A stretch of DNA of 64,000 bases, taken from assembly GCA_028713575.1 (NCBI GenBank), contig JAQTOB010000002.1, forward strand, positions 1,371 to 65,370, written 5' to 3'. A model generated the notes under the pieces. That model worked only from the letters and a program-made list of their open reading frames with translations, did no database searches and was not told the origin of the DNA. The stretch is from Patescibacteria group bacterium. Its GTDB lineage: Bacteria; Patescibacteriota; Patescibacteriia; UBA2591; UBA6264. The number at the start of each line of letters is the position of its first letter. Positions within the stretch are counted from its first letter, which is position 1. This document shows, piece after piece, positions 3,442 through 38,732 of the stretch. The position numbers and the translations under genes are program-made.

Positions 3442-4328
3442 CTCTTTCCATAATTATTGTTAGCTGGAACGTTAAGGCCCTTTTAGAAAGGTGTCTGGAT
3501 TCCGTTTTCCGTAATTTAAATGATTTAGAAGCGGAAATTTTAGTTGTGGATAATAATTCTCAGGATGGGAGCCAAGAATATTTAAAGAGTAGACAAAGTT
3601 ATAATTTGAAAATTATTTTAAATAACAGAAATTTTGGATTTAGCCAAGCCAATAATCAAGCCCTAAAACAGGCAAAAGGGGAGTATATTTTATTTCTTAA
3701 TCCAGATACGGAAATTATAGATGATGTTTGTCGGCAGGCAATCCAACTTTTACAACAAAACAAAGACTGGGGATTAATTGGTTGTCAGTTAATTGGTCCG
3801 GACAATAGAATTCAGTCCTCAGTAAGAACTTTCCCCAGCGTCGGGAATCAACTGATTCTTCTTTTAAAGCTCCAGTATTTGCTGCCCGGCCTTAGGACAT
3901 TGAAAAGATATTTTCGTCAGGATTTCAATTATGACCAGATTGCTGAGGTTGACCAGGTGGCAGGAGCATTTATGATGACAAAAAAAGAAGTTTTGGAACA
4001 GATAGGGAGTTTTGATGAGCGCTTCCATTTGTGGTTTGAAGACGTTGATTTTTGCTATCGGTTAAAACAAGTTGGTTATAAAATTATTTACTATCCTCGG
4101 AGAAAAGTAATTCATTATGGCGGACAGAGTTTTAATCAACTTTTATCCAAAGAGAGACAAAAAATTTATAACCACAGTTTACGGCTTTATTTTAAAAAAC
4201 ATTTTCCTCCTTTTTATTATTGGCCCATTATTTTAGTTCAGCCATTAAGTTTATTTTTGGCTCGGTTAAGCGAAGTTTTTTCTGTTACAAAAAAAGAACA
4301 AATAAAAAAAAGATTAAAAGTCAACTAG
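3438..4328 (+). CDS. glycosyltransferase family 2
   Basis: N-terminal MTLSIIIVSWN…VVDNNSQDGS matches the GT2 DxD/NxS pattern, with FEDVDFCYR in the C-terminal region. Confidence 0.8.
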   Translation: MTLSIIIVSWNVKALLERCLDSVFRNLNDLEAEILVVDNNSQDGSQEYLKSRQSYNLKIILNNRNFGFSQANNQALKQAKGEYILFLNPDTEIIDDVCRQAIQLLQQNKDWGLIGCQLIGPDNRIQSSVRTFPSVGNQLILLLKLQYLLPGLRTLKRYFRQDFNYDQIAEVDQVAGAFMMTKKEVLEQIGSFDERFHLWFEDVDFCYRLKQVGYKIIYYPRRKVIHYGGQSFNQLLSKERQKIYNHSLRLYFKKHFPPFYYWPIILVQPLSLFLARLSEVFSVTKKEQIKKRLKVN

Positions 4329-4335
4329 TTTTAAA

Positions 4336-5772
4336 ATGAAAGAGGATAATTTAAAATTAAATTTAGGAATAATGATTTTTTGTTTTTTTCTTTTTCATTT
4401 GTTTTCTTTTTTGGCTTATCAACATCCTTGGTTAAATAGCTTATTTTTTTGGTTAATTATTATTTTAGCGATTATTTTTAGTTTATATAGATTAGAATAT
4501 GGATTTTTATTTCTGATTTTTGAATTTTTTTCCGGTCATGAAGGCCATTTATTTGAATTTGTCGGACTTTCTTTAAGGTGGGCTTTATTTTTAGTGATTA
4601 TTTTTATTTGGTTTGTTCGGCGATTCAATCAGGAGAAGAAAAATTTTTTTCGACGCCTTATTCAACCAAAAATATCTTTATTTTTTTCAATTTTTTTACT
4701 GATTGTTTTTTTGTCTTTTATTCAGGGGTTGGTTCAAAATGACCCAGTTTTGGCGATTAAAGATTTTATTAATTATTCATATTTTTTCTTGATTTTTCCT
4801 TTAATGGATGTTGTTAAGAACAGGTGGTTTCAGGAAAAAACTTTCAAGATCGGTAAAGCGGCGACCATTGGCATTACCTTAGTAACGATTTTTGTTTTTG
4901 TTCTTTTCGTTTCAGGTTTAGTTAATGTCCATGGTCATTTTTATTGGTGGTGGCGAGGCACGGTAATCGGTAAGGCCACAGATACGGGTACTGGATTTTT
5001 CCGCATTGTCAGTTCGGCGCATCTTTTAATGGTGCCAATTTTTTTGCTTTATCTGAGTTTTTTGTTCGTGCCGGAAATTAAAAAAAAGAAAACCTGGTTT
5101 TGGCTGGCTTTTTTGTCCAGTGTGGTTCTTCTGATTAATTTTTCCCGCGCTTATTTTCTTGGCATTGTCATTGGCTTATTTTTTTTAGGCAGGAGTTTAC
5201 CTTGGAGACGCTGGCTATGTTTTTCTCTAACTACGATTTTGGTATTATTTTTTGAGTTTTTTATTATTTTTGGTTTGGCCACCGGCGAATGGGGGAATCA
5301 AGGCGCGTTATTTTTCGGGAAGAGAATCCAAACCGTGGTGACGCCCGGCGAAGAGGTGAGTTCTTTAAGCCGGATGAACATCCTGCCCCAGTTGCTGAGT
5401 CGGTTGGAAAAAGAACCGATATTTAGCCAGGGGCTGGGCACTACTGTTTCCTATTTTGATCCGGTTACGCAGATGCAGAAATCCACTTTTCATTTAGACT
5501 GGGGTTATCTGGAGATGTGGTTAGAACTAGGCTTTTTCGGTTTGTTGTTTTATTTTTTTCTTTTATTTAATATTTTTTATCAGGGATGGCGAAAATTGAA
5601 AGAACTGACCCAAATTTGGGGGAAAAGGCTAATTATCGGCTTGCTAGCCGGTTTGGCGAGTCTGATGGTTGCCACCTTGACCGGTCCATTTTTGTTTCAT
5701 CCCTTGGGAATATTTTACGTGGTTTCAACCGCGGCCATAATTAACATTTTAAAAAATGAAAACTCGGCTTAA
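4336..5772 (+). CDS. O-antigen ligase/polymerase-like (Wzy_C-type) polytopic membrane protein
   Basis: 478 aa with roughly 10-12 TM helices and a large loop region. It sits in the glycan cluster between GT genes. Confidence 0.45.
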   Translation: MKEDNLKLNLGIMIFCFFLFHLFSFLAYQHPWLNSLFFWLIIILAIIFSLYRLEYGFLFLIFEFFSGHEGHLFEFVGLSLRWALFLVIIFIWFVRRFNQEKKNFFRRLIQPKISLFFSIFLLIVFLSFIQGLVQNDPVLAIKDFINYSYFFLIFPLMDVVKNRWFQEKTFKIGKAATIGITLVTIFVFVLFVSGLVNVHGHFYWWWRGTVIGKATDTGTGFFRIVSSAHLLMVPIFLLYLSFLFVPEIKKKKTWFWLAFLSSVVLLINFSRAYFLGIVIGLFFLGRSLPWRRWLCFSLTTILVLFFEFFIIFGLATGEWGNQGALFFGKRIQTVVTPGEEVSSLSRMNILPQLLSRLEKEPIFSQGLGTTVSYFDPVTQMQKSTFHLDWGYLEMWLELGFFGLLFYFFLLFNIFYQGWRKLKELTQIWGKRLIIGLLAGLASLMVATLTGPFLFHPLGIFYVVSTAAIINILKNENSA

Positions 5773-11863: not shown

Positions 11864-12672
11864 TTTCCATGATTGATACGCATGCGCATTTAAATTTTGA
11901 AGATTTTAAAGACGATTACCAAGAGGTCATTAAAGATAATTTTAAAAATGGTTTAATGGCGCTTATTAATGTCGGCTCAAACTTGGAGACCAGTCAGAAG
12001 GCGATAAAGATTACTAAAGAATTTACAGGTTGTTATGCCGCCTTAGGTTTGCACCCCATTCACGTTGAGGACGAAGAATTTAATGAAGAAAAATACAAGG
12101 AATTGATTGAAAAGAATAAGGAAAAAGTCAAAGCCATTGGGGAAACTGGTCTTGATTTTTATCATTCACAAAACAACAAGGAAAAACAAAGATCCTTATT
12201 TTTGAAACATATTTCCCTAGCTAACTTGTCTGATTTGCCGATTATTATTCATTCCCGAGGAAGCAAAGGAAATCCAAGAGATGCTTATTTGGAGTTATTA
12301 GAAATTATTAAAGGGCTGCCAACCTCACGCTCAAGTGCGGTTAGGGGAGTGATTCATTGTTTTTCCGCCAATAGGGAGATTGTCCAGGAATTTTTAAAAC
12401 TTGGTTTTTACGTGGGCTTTGACGGGCCTATTACTTTTAAAAATGCCGACCCATTGGTCTTGGAAGCGGTAAAAGAAACACCCCTAAACAAGATTTTACT
12501 AGAAACCGATTCTCCCTACTTGACTCCGGAACCATACCGTGGTCAGAGAAATCAACCGGTTTATATTCGCTTCGTTGCTCAAAAAATTGCGGAATTGAAA
12601 AATATTTCCCTTGAAGAAGTAATCAGCCAAACAACTAAAAATGCGCAGAAATTGTTTGACATAAAATTATGA
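11860..12672 (+). CDS. tatD: TatD family metal-dependent hydrolase/DNase
   Basis: N-terminal IDTHAHL and the conserved TatD layout. It overlaps cdd by 4 nt. Confidence 0.85.
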   Translation: MISMIDTHAHLNFEDFKDDYQEVIKDNFKNGLMALINVGSNLETSQKAIKITKEFTGCYAALGLHPIHVEDEEFNEEKYKELIEKNKEKVKAIGETGLDFYHSQNNKEKQRSLFLKHISLANLSDLPIIIHSRGSKGNPRDAYLELLEIIKGLPTSRSSAVRGVIHCFSANREIVQEFLKLGFYVGFDGPITFKNADPLVLEAVKETPLNKILLETDSPYLTPEPYRGQRNQPVYIRFVAQKIAELKNISLEEVISQTTKNAQKLFDIKL

Positions 12673-33399: not shown

Positions 33400-33673
33400 T
33401 TTTGCTCTTTAAAAATTTATTTTAATAAATCCGGTTTTTACCGGATTTTTATTTTGTTCCATTCTGAATTCTAATTTTCCTAAATTTTTTATGGTAAGAT
33501 ACTCGCCGCACTCGGATTTATTTAGTCGCTATTTTGCGGCGGTTAATAATTAATAAATTTTAAACAATAAATTGTTAATAAATTTAGATGGCAAAATTAA
33601 AATGAAAGATTTTATTATTTTGATAAAAATTATTGCAGTTTTAATTTATAATTTTTGAAAATAGTGAAAAAAG

Positions 33674-33779
33674 TTATCCACAGGGCAAAGATTGTTTTGT
33701 GGGAAAAAATGGTTTATAATACATCTGTTGTGTATATCTGTGGATAAAAGTGGGGATAAATAAAGATATCTGTGGATAA
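33674..33779. promoter_or_regulatory. cluster of DnaA boxes
   Basis: Perfect TTATCCACA on + at 33674-33682. Perfect boxes on - (TGTGGATAA) at 33739-33747 and 33771-33779. A one-mismatch box TGGGGATAA at 33751-33759 and a weaker TGTGGGAAA at 33698-33706. An AT-rich tract lies upstream (33590-33670). Confidence 0.5.
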
Positions 33780-33799
33780 CTCTCAAATAATATTTTTAT

Positions 33800-34231
33800 A
33801 TGTTTATCGGCGAATACCATTATTCAATAGATGATAAAAATAGATTAGGTCTGCCTGTTAAATTTAGACTTGATCTTTTTAAAGGCGCAGTAGTCACGCG
33901 GGGTTTGGATGCTTGCCTTTTTTTATTTCCCAAAAAAGAATGGGAAAAATTGGCAGCTAAGTTGGCAGAAATGCCAATCAGCCAATCAAAGCCGCGGGCT
34001 TTTGCCCGCTTGATGTTGGCCGGCGCCATGGACGTGGAATTGGATAAACAGGGTAGAATTAATTTGCCTGATTATTTACGCAGTTATGCTGATTTGGGTA
34101 AAAAAGTAGTGGTGGCCGGTTTATACAATCGTTTGGAAATTTGGGACGAAAAGAAATGGGAAGAATACAAGAAAACATCAGAGGAAGACAGCTCAGAAAT
34201 TGCCGAAACATTAGGAGAGTTGGGAGTATAA
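33800..34231 (+). CDS. mraZ: transcriptional regulator MraZ
   Basis: MFIGEYHYSIDDKNRLGLPVKFR… with a duplicated SpoVT/AbrB-like MraZ fold. It is the first gene of the dcw cluster. Confidence 0.85.
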   Translation: MFIGEYHYSIDDKNRLGLPVKFRLDLFKGAVVTRGLDACLFLFPKKEWEKLAAKLAEMPISQSKPRAFARLMLAGAMDVELDKQGRINLPDYLRSYADLGKKVVVAGLYNRLEIWDEKKWEEYKKTSEEDSSEIAETLGELGV

Positions 34232-34344: not shown

Positions 34345-35214
34345 ATGCATATTCCAGTTCTTTTAAAAGAAGTTATTGAATATTTTAATCCCAGTCCGGG
34401 CAAGAATTTTATTGACGCAACTATTGGCGGCGGGGGACATGCCAAAGAAATTTTAAAAAAAACATTTCCAGATGGGAAATTACTTGGATTAGACGCTAGT
34501 CCGGAAGCAATTGAAGACATTAAAGCTCAGACAAAGGAAAGCGATTTAAAAAGACTTATTTTAATTAATGATAATTTTTCTCATTTAAAAGAGATTGTTC
34601 AAGAAAATAATTTTCAACCAGTTAATGGAGTTTTATTTGACTTAGGATTATCAAGTAATTTATTAGCAAGTAGCGGTCGGGGATTCAGTTTTATGGCGCA
34701 TGAATTTTTAGACATGCGGTATAATCCGCAAGGCCAATCTTTAACGGCGGATAAAATTATTAACAATTACGATAAAAATGATTTAGAAATGTTTTTTCGG
34801 GATTATGGCGGAGAAAGGTTTGCTGGTCGCATCGCTCAGGCCATTGTTAAGGAAAGAAAAAACGGGAAAATTACTATGACCAGCCAATTAGTAATGATTA
34901 TAAGAAAAGCTTTAGGCCGCCGTTTTCATGTCAAAAGTTTAGCCAGGGTTTTCCAGGCCTTAAGAATTAAGATTAATTACGAGATGGAAAATATTCAATT
35001 GGGCTTTAATGACGCGGTTGACATTTTGACATCGGGCGGAAGAATTATTGTTCTTACTTATCATTCAGGTGAAGACCAAATTGTAAAAAATCTTTTTAAA
35101 CAAGAACCAAGAATAAAAATAATAAATAAAAAAACCATTAAACCCTCTCAAGAAGAAATTAAAAATAATATTCGGGCGCGGAGCGCCAAAATGAGAGTAG
35201 GGGAGAAAATTTAA
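34345..35214 (+). CDS. rsmH: 16S rRNA (cytosine1402-N4)-methyltransferase RsmH (MraW)
   Basis: MHIPVLLKEVIEYF…DATIGGGGHA. Confidence 0.9.
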   Translation: MHIPVLLKEVIEYFNPSPGKNFIDATIGGGGHAKEILKKTFPDGKLLGLDASPEAIEDIKAQTKESDLKRLILINDNFSHLKEIVQENNFQPVNGVLFDLGLSSNLLASSGRGFSFMAHEFLDMRYNPQGQSLTADKIINNYDKNDLEMFFRDYGGERFAGRIAQAIVKERKNGKITMTSQLVMIIRKALGRRFHVKSLARVFQALRIKINYEMENIQLGFNDAVDILTSGGRIIVLTYHSGEDQIVKNLFKQEPRIKIINKKTIKPSQEEIKNNIRARSAKMRVGEKI

Positions 35215-35220
35215 AACATT

Positions 35221-35553
35221 ATGACTCTTGCTCAAAAATTTTTCCGAACAATTTTCGGAGAAAAACAAAAAACAAAATACATCGTTTTTAATTGTTCCGC
35301 TTTATTGGTTTTTATTTTAATTGTTGTTTTTTATTTAATTCAAGTTAATACCGGCATTTCTTATCGTTTAGAAATGGAAAAAACAAACAAAGAAATAAGA
35401 TCTTTAAAAATTGAAAACGAAGAACTTTTAAAACAAACGACCGTAGTCGGTTCTATGGCTAATGTTCACCAATTGGCGCAAGGACTAAAAATGGTTAAAG
35501 TCGACCAAACGGATTATTTATTTATGTCAGAAGAGGTTTTTGCCAGAAAATAA
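35221..35553 (+). CDS. ftsL: cell division protein FtsL-like (septum formation initiator family)
   Basis: 110 aa with a short cytoplasmic N-terminus, one TM helix and a coiled coil. It occupies the conserved position between rsmH and ftsI. Confidence 0.5.
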   Translation: MTLAQKFFRTIFGEKQKTKYIVFNCSALLVFILIVVFYLIQVNTGISYRLEMEKTNKEIRSLKIENEELLKQTTVVGSMANVHQLAQGLKMVKVDQTDYLFMSEEVFARK

Positions 35554-37345
35554 TTTTATATATGATATGAATAGAAGGATAAAAATACTAATAATGTTAG
35601 TATTTCTTTTAGGATTTTGCGTGGTTGGTCGACTTTTTGAATTGCAAGTTTTGGGCCATAATTTTTTGGGTGAAACGATTTACCGCCGACAAATAACAAA
35701 GAAAATAATTCCGGCGGAACGGGGAAAAATTTTTACTCACGACGGGAAAGATTTTTATTCCGTGGCCATTAATGTTAATACTTATAATTTAATTGCGTCA
35801 CCGAATGAAGTTTCACAATCAAAAATAACGCCCGCGCAATGGTTGGGGAAAATCGTTTCTTATTTGGATATTTCCGAACCAACGTCTGTTTCAGAAGAAG
35901 TATTTTTAATTCAAGAGAACGAAGAAACAAATAAATTAAAAAATGTTTTGATTAGAATTTCCAGCAAAAATGATTATTATGAATTATTAAAAAAGGGATT
36001 AACCACTAAGGAAATGGAAGAAATTCAAGATTTGAATTTACCGGGTATAAGTTTTGAAACAGTTCCTCGGCGTTATTATCCAGAAGAAAACGTTTTTAGT
36101 CATTTAATTGGTTTTGTTAATTTGCCACAAGATTGCGAGCAGGGAATATGTCAAGGTGGTACTGGCCAATATGGCTTGGAAAAATTTTTTGATAAAGAAC
36201 TTGCTGGTCAATCTGGATGGCAAAACATAGAAAATAGCGGCGGCTTGCCTGATTATACTAAAGACACCATTAAGCCGGCAAAAAAGGGGATTGATTTAGT
36301 TTTAACCATTGATCGCACCATTCAATTTTTTACTTGTCAACTTCTTGGAAAAGCAATTAAAGAATATGAAGCTACAGAAGGATCAATTGTGGTTTTAGAA
36401 ATCAAAACAGGAAGAATTTTAGCTCTTTGTAATAAGCCGGATTTTAATCCTAATAATTATTCTGAAGTAAAAAATTATTCTTTATTTAAAAATCCGGTTG
36501 TTAATTCGTCTTTTGAGCCAGGCTCAATTTTTAAAGTTATTACCATGGCGAGCGGATTAGACAGTGGGGTGGTAATTCCGGAAACAACTTTTCTTGATTT
36601 GGGAATGATTGATATAGATGGAGATGTTATCCATAATGTTGACGACAGAAGCTTTGGTTATCAAGATATGACCGGGATTTTGGAAAAATCAATTAATACG
36701 GGCGCAGTTTTTGTAGCACAAAAGTTAGGTCGTCCTAATTTTCGTAACTATTTGAAAAAATTTGGTTTTGGTAGCCTGACTAAAATTGAGTTGCCGGATG
36801 AAATGATTGGCGACATTAGTAATTTAGATCAAAAACAAAAAATATACTTAGCGACCGCTTCTTTTGGTCAAGGAATTACAGTTACGCCCATACAAATGGT
36901 TAACGCCATTGCCGCCATTGCCAATAAAGGCAAATTGATGAAGCCTTATTTAATTGAGGCAATAATTAAAGATGGACAAAAAATTATTCAAGAGCCGGAA
37001 TTTATTCGTCAGGTAATTTCTCCATCCGTTGCCTCCTCTTTAACCGCGATGATGGTTTCGGTTTGTGAAAAAGGCTATGGAAAGGGAGCACAAGTAAAGG
37101 ATTATTATGTAGCCGGAAAAACAGGAACGGCACAAATCCCCCAAAAAGGAGGCGGTTATTCTGACGAGACAATCCATTCTTTTGTTGGCTTTGCGCCGGC
37201 GACTGATCCAAAGTTTGCGGTTTTAATTAAATTTGACAAACCTCAAAAAGGACGTTTTGCCGAATCAACCGCGGTTCCGGTATTCGCGCAATTGACGGAG
37301 TTCATTTTGGATTATTACCACATCCCGCCAGACAAAAAACATTAG
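35540..37345 (+). CDS. ftsI: penicillin-binding protein 2 / FtsI-type transpeptidase
   Basis: SxxK (GSIFKV), SxN (KSINTG) and KTGT (AGKTGTAQ) motifs, with an N-terminal TM anchor. Confidence 0.85.
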   Translation: MPENNFIYDMNRRIKILIMLVFLLGFCVVGRLFELQVLGHNFLGETIYRRQITKKIIPAERGKIFTHDGKDFYSVAINVNTYNLIASPNEVSQSKITPAQWLGKIVSYLDISEPTSVSEEVFLIQENEETNKLKNVLIRISSKNDYYELLKKGLTTKEMEEIQDLNLPGISFETVPRRYYPEENVFSHLIGFVNLPQDCEQGICQGGTGQYGLEKFFDKELAGQSGWQNIENSGGLPDYTKDTIKPAKKGIDLVLTIDRTIQFFTCQLLGKAIKEYEATEGSIVVLEIKTGRILALCNKPDFNPNNYSEVKNYSLFKNPVVNSSFEPGSIFKVITMASGLDSGVVIPETTFLDLGMIDIDGDVIHNVDDRSFGYQDMTGILEKSINTGAVFVAQKLGRPNFRNYLKKFGFGSLTKIELPDEMIGDISNLDQKQKIYLATASFGQGITVTPIQMVNAIAAIANKGKLMKPYLIEAIIKDGQKIIQEPEFIRQVISPSVASSLTAMMVSVCEKGYGKGAQVKDYYVAGKTGTAQIPQKGGGYSDETIHSFVGFAPATDPKFAVLIKFDKPQKGRFAESTAVPVFAQLTEFILDYYHIPPDKKH

Positions 37346-37430
37346 AATATTGGAGCATGAGAGCATAAGAATAGAAGAATAAAAATAATAATAAAATTTA
37401 ATTTTTTATTTTACTTTTAACGAAGATTTT

Positions 37431-38732
37431 ATGTTATTAAAAATTTTACAAAAAATTTTAGCTTTTATGGCCAAAAAAATAATTAAACGGCACAAACCGT
37501 TAGTAATTGGTATTACCGGAAGCGTGGGCAAATCTTCTGCCAAGCAGATGATTTCTTTGATTTTGAAAGACCAAATGGATATTCGTGAAAGTAAGGGTAA
37601 TTATAATAATGAAATTGGTGTGCCTTTAACCATTATTGGCATAAGCAAATCGCCAGGGAAAAATGTTTTGGGTTGGTTTAGAGTTTTTATTTTCGCTTTA
37701 ATTAAAATTATTTTTAAAAAAAGATTTTATCCAAAAATTTTGGTTTTGGAAATGGCTGCGGATAGACCGGGCGATATTGAATATTTACTTAAAATAGCCG
37801 CTTGCAACATTGGAGTAATAACCGCTATTTCTTCGGCTCATATAGAATTTTTTGAGAGTTTAGAAAACATAGCTAAAGAAAAAAGTTCGCTCATTTCTAA
37901 TTTACCAGAAAACGGTTGGGCAATTTTAAACATGGACGATAAAAGGGTGGCAGGCCTTAGAAATGCGGCCAAGGCGCAGGTTTTAACTTATGGTTTTGAT
38001 TCTCAGGCCGATTTGCGGGGATTGGGATTGGAAATAGACCAGACTTTAAAACCAGAAGGACCAATAATAAATGGTTTGCAATTTAAAGTAAGTTATCGGG
38101 GCAATGTGATACCGGTTTTTTTGCCAAAAGCAATTTCTTTTAGCCAAGCTTATTCCGCTTTAGCCGGCCTGGCCGTTGGCTTGGCCTTAGGTTTTAATTT
38201 AATTGATTTAGTTCAATCTTTTGAAAAACATAAAAATTTACCCGGTCGTATGAATTTAATTTCTGGAATTAATAAAAGTTTAATCATTGATGATACCTAT
38301 AACTCTTCGCCCCGAGCCGTAGAAGCGGCGTTAGAAACCCTGAACAAGATAGAAATTAACTCACAAGCAAGTAGATGGGTGATACTTGGCGATATGTTGG
38401 AATTAGGAGAAATTAGCCAAAAGGCCCATTATCAAATCGGCGAAAAAATTAATAAAGAAAAAATTGATTATTTAATAGTTGTGGGGAAGGAAGCGGGAGC
38501 CATTGCTCAGGGTGCCAGAGAGAACGGTTTTATAAATGAAAATGTTTTTATTTTTGAAAATTCCATGGCCGTGACAAAGTTTTTAAAATCAAGGATTAAA
38601 ACCGGCGATGTGATTTTAATCAAAGGTTCGCAAAAGATGCGTTTAGAAAGATTGGTCAAGGAAATAATGTTGCAGCCAAGAATGGCAAAAAAATGTTTGG
38701 TCCGCCAGAGCCATTATTGGCTTAAAAATTAA
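37431..38732 (+). CDS. murF: Mur ligase family protein, probably UDP-MurNAc-pentapeptide synthetase MurF
   Basis: P-loop VIGITGSVGKSS and Mur ligase middle and C-terminal domains. Its position after ftsI in the dcw cluster fits murF. Confidence 0.6.
   Translation: MLLKILQKILAFMAKKIIKRHKPLVIGITGSVGKSSAKQMISLILKDQMDIRESKGNYNNEIGVPLTIIGISKSPGKNVLGWFRVFIFALIKIIFKKRFYPKILVLEMAADRPGDIEYLLKIAACNIGVITAISSAHIEFFESLENIAKEKSSLISNLPENGWAILNMDDKRVAGLRNAAKAQVLTYGFDSQADLRGLGLEIDQTLKPEGPIINGLQFKVSYRGNVIPVFLPKAISFSQAYSALAGLAVGLALGFNLIDLVQSFEKHKNLPGRMNLISGINKSLIIDDTYNSSPRAVEAALETLNKIEINSQASRWVILGDMLELGEISQKAHYQIGEKINKEKIDYLIVVGKEAGAIAQGARENGFINENVFIFENSMAVTKFLKSRIKTGDVILIKGSQKMRLERLVKEIMLQPRMAKKCLVRQSHYWLKN

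Follow-up and report, generated by a model that had tools for sequence, protein, structure and literature searches.

Candidate DnaA boxes flank a predicted MraZ operator at the mraZ promoter of a Patescibacteria bacterium and many of its relatives

Introduction

Does a dense cluster of DnaA boxes directly upstream of mraZ mark an origin of replication, or does it belong to a promoter? The question is raised by a 64,000-nucleotide stretch of contig JAQTOB010000002.1 from a Patescibacteria group bacterium (GenBank assembly GCA_028713575.1, positions 1,371 to 65,370 of the forward strand), which is 34% G+C and is referred to below as the window. An earlier note on this DNA had described three perfect and two near-perfect DnaA boxes next to an AT-rich tract, and had offered both a candidate chromosomal origin (oriC) and a DnaA-controlled promoter of the dcw gene cluster as explanations. 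Our answer, which we hold with moderate confidence, is that positions 33670-33785 combine the promoter of a Patescibacteria (candidate phyla radiation, CPR) mraZ operon with an MraZ operator and with genuine DnaA boxes that flank it.

Related loci were collected by scanning species-representative genomes with the MraZ protein. This yielded 80 loci with 66-92% MraZ identity, and counts over 81 loci refer to these 80 relatives plus the window. Judged by those record titles that are meaningful, the relatives are Patescibacteria (Uhr-, Falkow-, Kerfeld-, Magasanik-, Buchanan- and Komeilibacteria); about two dozen are labelled 'uncultured Gammaproteobacteria', which we take to be an artefact of the record title. 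Column positions across relatives were anchored on GTGG-N6-GTGGGG, and the sequence surrounding the anchored mraZ promoter-operator is not alignable among them. We also analyzed the 10 kb that adjoin the window on its left (source contig, JGI Ga0378408_0000012), for a total of 74 kb together with the window.

Results

The clustering of exact DnaA boxes is real. The 9-mer TTATCCACA lies on the + strand at 33674-33682, while its complement TGTGGATAA is read on the + strand at 33739-33747 and 33771-33779. Exact copies of TTATCCACA number 5 in the 64-kb window against 0.48 expected, a count reached in 0/100 shuffles, and 3 of these 5 are packed into 106 bp (33674-33779), as the earlier note had claimed. 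The two remaining copies, at 3545 and 43853, lie inside open reading frames (ORFs) and have no G flanks; we treated them as chance matches in coding sequence. Of the two additional boxes that had been called near-perfect, TGGGGATAA at 33751-33759 deserves the name with 1 mismatch, while for TGTGGGAAA at 33698-33706, which has 2 mismatches, the label was generous. The position directly upstream of mraZ is likewise borne out, with the mraZ start (PF02381) at 33800. What that first reading overlooked is a canonical MraZ operator, an array of GTG(G/T) boxes phased at 10 bp, together with a perfect 12-bp inverted repeat and a 14-bp direct repeat among the boxes.

The DNA between the outermost boxes contains a predicted promoter and this operator. 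A -35 hexamer TTGTTT (33692..33697, + strand), read from the sequence, is separated by a 17-bp spacer from a perfect -10 TATAAT (33715..33720, + strand), and the predicted start falls at ~33727. The same elements recur in the anchored columns of the relatives, with a -35 consensus of ggTTg.c at -60..-54 (TTGaC at -58..-53) and a -10 of TAnAAT at -35..-30. This is the predicted sigma-70-type promoter of mraZ-rsmH-ftsL-pbp-murF, upstream of mraZ. The MraZ operator GTGTatatctGTGGataaaaGTGG (33730..33753, + strand) consists of three GTG(G/T) boxes with 6-nt spacers. Its boxes begin at 33730, 33740 and 33750, or ~+3, +13 and +23 from the predicted start, so that the array has a 10-bp period, and its distance to the mraZ ATG downstream is 47-70 bp. 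The pattern GTG(G/T)-N6-GTG(G/T)-N6-GTG(G/T) has no other occurrence in the window on either strand (128 kb in total), and GTGG-N6-GTGGGG is found at most 300 bp upstream of mraZ in 73/81 loci. GTGTatatctGTGGataaaaGTGG matches the published definition of an MraZ operator (PMC12957436; bioRxiv 10.1101/2022.02.09.479790), which in B. subtilis takes the form of GTGG[A/T]G repeats (bioRxiv 10.1101/2022.02.09.479790). A-rich spacers are typical of MraZ operators (PMC12957436), and are also seen within the operator across the relatives. Taken together, these observations provide good support for a promoter-operator in which 33730-33753 is predicted to be a canonical MraZ operator.

Three of the five proposed DnaA boxes coincide with MraZ boxes. 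Within the -35/-10 spacer, GTGG (33699-33702) and ATGG (33709-33712), both on the + strand (33699..33712), are in phase with the operator. Relatives keep GTGG-N6-ATGG at this position with no ATAA extension, and TGTGGGAAA is this GTGG box. The exact DnaA 9-mer at 33739..33747 (- strand) overlaps MraZ box 2 and its spacer, and is a possible dual site. Its equivalent is an exact TGTGNATAA in 13/72 loci, which constitute the subclade of the window, and reads AGTGGATAA in 24/71 relatives (TTATCCACT on the opposite strand); its flanks are T/T, unlike those of the stand-alone sites discussed below. Finally, TGGGGATAA at 33751..33759 (- strand) is MraZ box 3 (GTGGGG) plus spacer, and sits 2 nt out of the DnaA register. 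Box 3 is GTGGGG by definition of the anchor; the next nucleotide is A in 70/71 loci, and the ATAA extension is present in 35/71. By their motifs, the boxes at 33698, 33739 and 33751 each consist of an MraZ box and the adjacent A-rich spacer. Because GTGG followed by an A-rich spacer mimics TGTGGATAA, counting DnaA boxes alone wrongly flags MraZ operators as origins, which is the practical lesson of this locus. The proposal of a DnaA-controlled dcw promoter consequently divides: it is plausible for the boxes at 33674 and 33771, while those at 33698, 33739 and 33751 are explained by the MraZ operator.

We then asked whether the two outermost sites are DnaA boxes in their own right. The upstream stand-alone DnaA-type box, AGTTATCCACAG (33672..33683, + strand; 9-mer 33674-33682), is inverted relative to the GTGG array and ends 9 bp ahead of the -35. 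The downstream stand-alone DnaA-type box (33770..33781, - strand; 9-mer 33771-33779), which reads CTGTGGATAACT on the + strand, lies at ~+44..+52 from the predicted start. These two 12-mers are the arms of the perfect 12-bp inverted repeat. The rival explanation that bears most directly on them is that of an operator for MraZ and no other protein, in which every site containing GTGG, the flanking 12-mers included, would be an MraZ box, the MraZ of this lineage would prefer the extended sequence GTGGATAA, and the likeness to DnaA boxes would be a coincidence with no role for DnaA. We regard this explanation as unlikely.

In the relatives, the DnaA consensus TTATNCACA (PMC4447404) occurs at 3.58/kb in the 300 bp upstream of mraZ compared to 0.046/kb in the other 562 kb of the related loci. 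An exact TTATNCACA is found upstream in 43/72 loci, and the coding-strand orientation prevails by ~35 to 4 (300-bp scan). Measured from box 3, upstream copies of TTATNCACA on the coding strand fall into two modes, one at -73 to -76 (19 loci) and one at ~-117 to -129; a site that is inverted and stands at variable distance is not what an array of MraZ boxes would predict. Unbiased counting of k-mers between -160 and -45 independently returned TTATCCACA as the commonest 9-mer (32/71 loci), followed by its overlapping extensions (A)GTTATCCACAG(G). On the downstream side, TGTGNATAA is present at +21 from box 3 as an exact match in 23 loci, and with at most 1 mismatch in 42/72.

Conservation within the +21 site was measured among loci picked independently of it, by virtue of box 3 being GTGGGGATAA (n=35). 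A28 (34/35) and A29 (33/35) are kept better than the fourth G of GTGG (G25, 26/35), which is otherwise A, C or T. The variants TGTGCATAA, TGTGAATAA, TGTGTATAA and TGTTAATAA are seen, and GTGC, GTGA and GTTA forms leave ATAA intact. Better retention of ATAA than of the fourth G fits TTATNCACA and not GTG(G/T), and these variants likewise speak against the downstream site being an MraZ box. The upstream and +21 sites furthermore have common flanks, namely A at -2 and a G at both -1 and +10, which the MraZ array box lacks. In stand-alone sites C-T precedes GTGG and ATAA-C is conserved behind it; in array boxes GTGG is preceded by A-A, and the complements are T-rich. This difference is hard to reconcile with a single class of MraZ boxes. 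The whole 9-mer, with position 5 free, is conserved at the upstream and +21 sites; it is not at 33698 or 33751, and at 33739 it is so in the subclade of the window only.

A change in MraZ specificity was considered as the cause of the ATAA extension and rejected, since the residues that read DNA are identical in loci with and without ATAA-type sites, a finding that also counts against the explanation by MraZ alone. Within these MraZ proteins the two ATAA classes are set apart by position 7 alone (H versus K/S/T), perhaps simply a reflection of phylogeny. Identity with known DnaA boxes points the same way. The 12-mer AGTTATCCACAG is identical to box R4 of E. coli oriC, and the 15 nt at 33673-33687, GTTATCCACAGGGCA, are identical to E. 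coli oriC R1 plus flank (NC_000913.3, around 3925801). Based on these motif comparisons, 33672-83 and 33770-81 form a motif class separate from the MraZ boxes, and the two flanking 12-mers are most likely genuine, high-affinity DnaA boxes.

The 14-bp direct repeat, ATATCTGTGGATAA, spans 33734-33747 and 33766-33779 with a 32-bp spacing. Within it, TATC-TGTG-GATA is itself partly palindromic, and the extra ATATC is not conserved among relatives.

Across the 74 kb of this genome, the 12-mer occurs with at most 1 mismatch at 3 sites only. Two are those at mraZ, and the third is at the promoter of hrcA-grpE-hsp20-dnaK, ~5.7 kb left of the window start (L087:3781-3838 in our numbering of loci), where AGTTATCCACAG, again in the same orientation, stands 18 bp ahead of the -35 and no GTGG array is near. 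That the 12-mer stands alone at this promoter of the same genome would speak against an MraZ box. A canonical CIRCE element (TTAGCACTC-N9-GAGTGCTAA) contains the -35 of the hrcA promoter, TTGACG, in its spacer, and the -10 of this promoter is TATAAT. It is possible, given the common 12-mer, that the hrcA promoter is a second member of the same regulon.

The pair of promoters also allows for a lineage-specific transcription factor, neither DnaA nor MraZ, that would recognize aGTTATCCACAg at a small regulon including mraZ and hrcA-dnaK. The motif is promoter-proximal and orientation-biased at these two unrelated promoters, and its assignment to DnaA is itself drawn from sequence. Yet the match to the DnaA-box consensus and to E. 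coli R1/R4 is exact over the 9-mer, with its free position 5, and over the flanks, and no candidate factor is encoded alongside; we therefore consider such a factor improbable.

Several observations weigh against the assignment of the flanking sites to DnaA. GTGG, the core of the MraZ box, is contained in every putative DnaA box, and position 5, although free in the consensus, is C in 39/47 upstream boxes; MraZ could therefore bind the flanking DnaA-type boxes as well. The +21 site holds an exact 22-bp register with box 3, while the intervening 12 nt are not conserved. This strict phase could represent a fourth MraZ box in a skipped register, as the explanation by MraZ alone would have it, or a fixed geometry needed by two proteins. 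The same explanation draws on the A-rich spacers noted above, on the reported binding of E. coli MraZ at a promoter containing a DnaA box (PMC4446571), and on a published example (Table S5) from outside the clade with both GTGGGATAA units and GTGG boxes in inverted orientation. Neither flanking box is present in 17/72 operator-bearing loci. In some loci a long distance separates the upstream box from the -35, and the box stands between the stop codon of the upstream gene and a terminator hairpin; it thus has no fixed distance to RNA polymerase. At hrcA, the promoter box is absent from 3 non-identical loci, the HrcA metagenome scan having returned just 4 loci, one of them identical to the query. 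With these points included, we continue to favor DnaA as the protein that recognizes the two flanking 12-mers.

Some relatives display further elements around these sites. In seven loci (L052, L066, L063, L017, L031, L032 and L074), a TT(A/G)TCCACA box 100-130 bp upstream of box 3 lies 3-16 bp (in some more) past the stop codon of the preceding gene, and is followed by a terminator-like hairpin with a T-run and then by the mraZ promoter. Ten Uhrbacteria-like loci (L017, L023, L025, L031-L033, L040, L061, L071 and L079) have no DnaA-type site at +21; their mraZ leaders contain, between ~+10 and +60 from box 3, a variable hairpin and then a conserved GRTGCTCAYTTTTATTT. This element might serve in attenuation or as a further binding site. 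In Kerfeldbacteria-like loci (L028:3636-3672, L038:3360-3396 and L065:1271-1307), a conserved AAAACCGAA(A/G)GTCAA(T/G)A stands directly 5' of a TTATNCACAG box, and this combined element is located several hundred bases or more upstream of mraZ.

Next, we considered whether the cluster could be a chromosomal oriC, for which the AT-rich tract would supply the unwinding element. Several consensus DnaA boxes do adjoin a tract that is 85% AT (33590-33670), and the AT-rich 80-bp stretch described in the earlier note is therefore real; it is nonetheless unremarkable, as values of 0.86-0.89 AT per 80 bp occur in intergenic DNA elsewhere in the window. GC skew is above 0 in every 2-kb bin of the window and cumulative skew rises monotonically, with no sign change at 33.7 kb or elsewhere in the window. 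Skew is also positive over the 10 kb to the left, and in 50/51 relatives (those with 3 kb or more to either side of mraZ) it is positive both upstream and downstream of mraZ. As the earlier note had stated, the window bears no signature of dnaA or dnaN. Neither the 10 kb further left nor any of the related loci contains one (DnaA peptide, six frames), and we found no DnaA-trio (TAG/TAA) run adjoining a box. What surrounds the site instead is the mra operon along with genes for RmuC, a permease and acetate kinase; the left-hand 10 kb carries topA, dprA, murG, hrcA-grpE-hsp20-dnaK and rpsI. In a complete Kerfeldbacteria chromosome (CP181398.1), the homologous site is at ~245 kb of 1.31 Mb. Finally, the boxes are interleaved with a promoter and a repressor operator. 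On the strength of skew, gene context, absent trios and an ordinary AT tract we reject the origin, whose probability at this site we judge close to negligible. Genes of the window are nearly all on the + strand, which together with positive skew throughout places the whole window on one replichore, co-oriented with replication; the origin should be found past the left end of the window, more than 10 kb off.

A cluster of boxes away from the origin might alternatively be a locus for titrating or recycling DnaA (like datA, DARS or the B. subtilis DBC) that fell by chance into the mraZ intergenic region and has no role in transcription. The 3 exact boxes and 1 near-exact box within 106 bp in the subclade of the window would suit such a locus, which most relatives, with one or two boxes only, would not. 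Since the boxes of the relatives moreover keep constant positions with respect to -35, -10 and operator, we view titration as very improbable. The conservation upstream of mraZ in relatives, which had been named as a check on the cluster, is positive.

The remaining features delimit the operon. On its left, the mraZ regulatory region is bounded by an intrinsic terminator of the upstream 91-aa ORF (33427..33448, + strand), with a 9-bp stem that includes 4 G-C pairs, followed by a T-run (0.0 expected in shuffles). Between this terminator and the AT tract, 33503-33542 can form a G+C-rich stem, CGCCGCA...TGCGGCG, which reaches 8 pairs when folded and closes a 25-nt loop; this hairpin was dropped as a candidate, its folding energy being no better than that of shuffles (z = -1.1) and Rfam giving no match. 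Over the whole window, Rfam returned 4 tRNAs only, with nothing in the mraZ intergenic region. The mraZ gene (33800..34231, + strand; PF02381) encodes 143 aa and retains D11, K13, R15, D82 and R86. Its DXXXR motifs, DDKNR (residues 11-15) and DKQGR (82-86), are invariant in the 55 relatives compared, and the D/K/R residues retained are those that read GTG(T/G) (PMC12957436). Downstream follow rsmH, a 110-aa ftsL-like ORF, a penicillin-binding protein (PBP) transpeptidase and a Mur ligase (34345..38732, + strand), identified with Pfam (PF01795; PBP_dimer and Transpeptidase; Mur_ligase_M and Mur_ligase_C). The gene after the operon, past 38732, is on the opposite strand.

One contig among the related loci carries two copies of mraZ. 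On contig JBAYNP010000006.1 (L054 and L058) they lie in opposite orientation ~7 kb apart, at ~4735-5163 and 12158-12586, with an identical promoter-operator, representing either an inverted duplication or an assembly artefact.

Discussion

We observed the motifs, where they lie and how they are conserved, and we found no features of an origin; which proteins bind, and whether they raise or lower expression, we infer. In the mechanism that we propose, the sigma-70-type promoter would fire at the predicted start, ~33727. Oligomeric MraZ would bind the array together with the in-phase boxes at 33699 and 33709, one subunit per box via K13/R15/R86, and would repress its own operon by blocking the binding or the escape of RNA polymerase, as suggested by E. 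coli, B. subtilis and Mycoplasma. DnaA would occupy the two 12-mers that bracket the promoter, as their motifs suggest. In the subclade of the window, MraZ box 2 appears also to have become a perfect DnaA box (33739-47), and DnaA might bind there. DnaA bound at the flanks would possibly spread over the sites that have the GTGG core in common, or compete with MraZ for them, and expression of the division genes would in this way depend on the status of the replication initiator. By analogy with the B. subtilis yllB-ftsL operon, the effect of DnaA on this operon is probably repression.

A broader version is conceivable, but we advance it only tentatively and think it doubtful as it stands. It holds that the arrangement is a two-regulator switch kept throughout an entire class of Patescibacteria, that the 22-bp register would let DnaA occupancy, and with it replication status, directly gate the autoregulation of MraZ and hence division, and that the site at hrcA-grpE-dnaK would extend a small DnaA regulon in genomes that are reduced and poor in regulators.

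If DnaA does bind, these loci would constitute a simple circuit tying replication initiation to division in bacteria that are poor in regulators, and would supply a rationale at the level of sequence for the overlap of MraZ and DnaA reported at E. coli mioC. The parts are already known, both the MraZ operators and the reported control by DnaA of the mraZ-ftsL operon in B. subtilis. What appears to be new is the architecture: in dozens of uncultured CPR lineages an MraZ operator is bracketed, and in part overlapped, by perfect DnaA boxes at fixed positions whose flanks are of the R1/R4 type. Within the collection of papers searched, none treats Patescibacteria together with DnaA boxes.

The operator closely resembles the MraZ-binding repeats of E. 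coli, B. subtilis, Mycoplasma genitalium and M. gallisepticum, with the same three direct GTG(G/T) boxes, 6-nt spacers and location at the start upstream of mraZ. The likeness extends to K13, R15 and R86 of the cognate MraZ and to the operon mraZ-rsmH-ftsL-pbp. It differs from these repeats in that box 3 is always GTGGGG, that ATAA spacers are found in about half of the clade, and that extra in-phase boxes lie within the -35/-10 spacer, with none at +10 and a site at +22 instead. The B. subtilis repeats, GTGGAGCGAAGTGGTGAATAGTGG, do not resemble DnaA boxes, and the superposition of MraZ and DnaA sites seen here is therefore specific to the clade.

Three further systems invite comparison on the side of DnaA. 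The first is the pair R1/R4 of E. coli oriC. There the extended sequence is identical (R4 is AGTTATCCACAG, R1 is GTTATCCACAGGGCA), and the pair is likewise inverted and ~100-200 bp apart. Unlike that pair, the present one has no origin context and its orientation is reversed, with TTATCCACA on the left and TGTGGATAA on the right.

The second is the mioC promoter of E. coli, at which MraZ is reported to bind a site overlapping a DnaA box (Eraso et al. 2014, cited through PMC4446571). There, mioC has the same superposed recognition sequences for MraZ and DnaA with the GTGG core in common. It differs in that the gene is another one and the site adjoins oriC, whereas in the Patescibacteria the overlap is at the promoter of mraZ itself.

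The third is B. subtilis, where the promoter of yllB(mraZ)-ylxA-ftsL-pbpB is reported to be bound and negatively regulated by DnaA (Goranov et al. 2005, cited through PMC2533591, PMC8203912 and bioRxiv 10.1101/2022.02.09.479790). The operon is the same and so is the proposed logic, with the initiator at the promoter lowering expression of division genes, while binding in our loci is read from sequence. We saw no consensus DnaA box in the 100 bp upstream of B. subtilis mraZ. Unlike B. subtilis, the Patescibacteria have perfect consensus 9-mers with R1/R4-type flanks, arranged as an inverted pair that brackets the promoter and overlapping the MraZ operator, and this arrangement of boxes is conserved over many CPR lineages.

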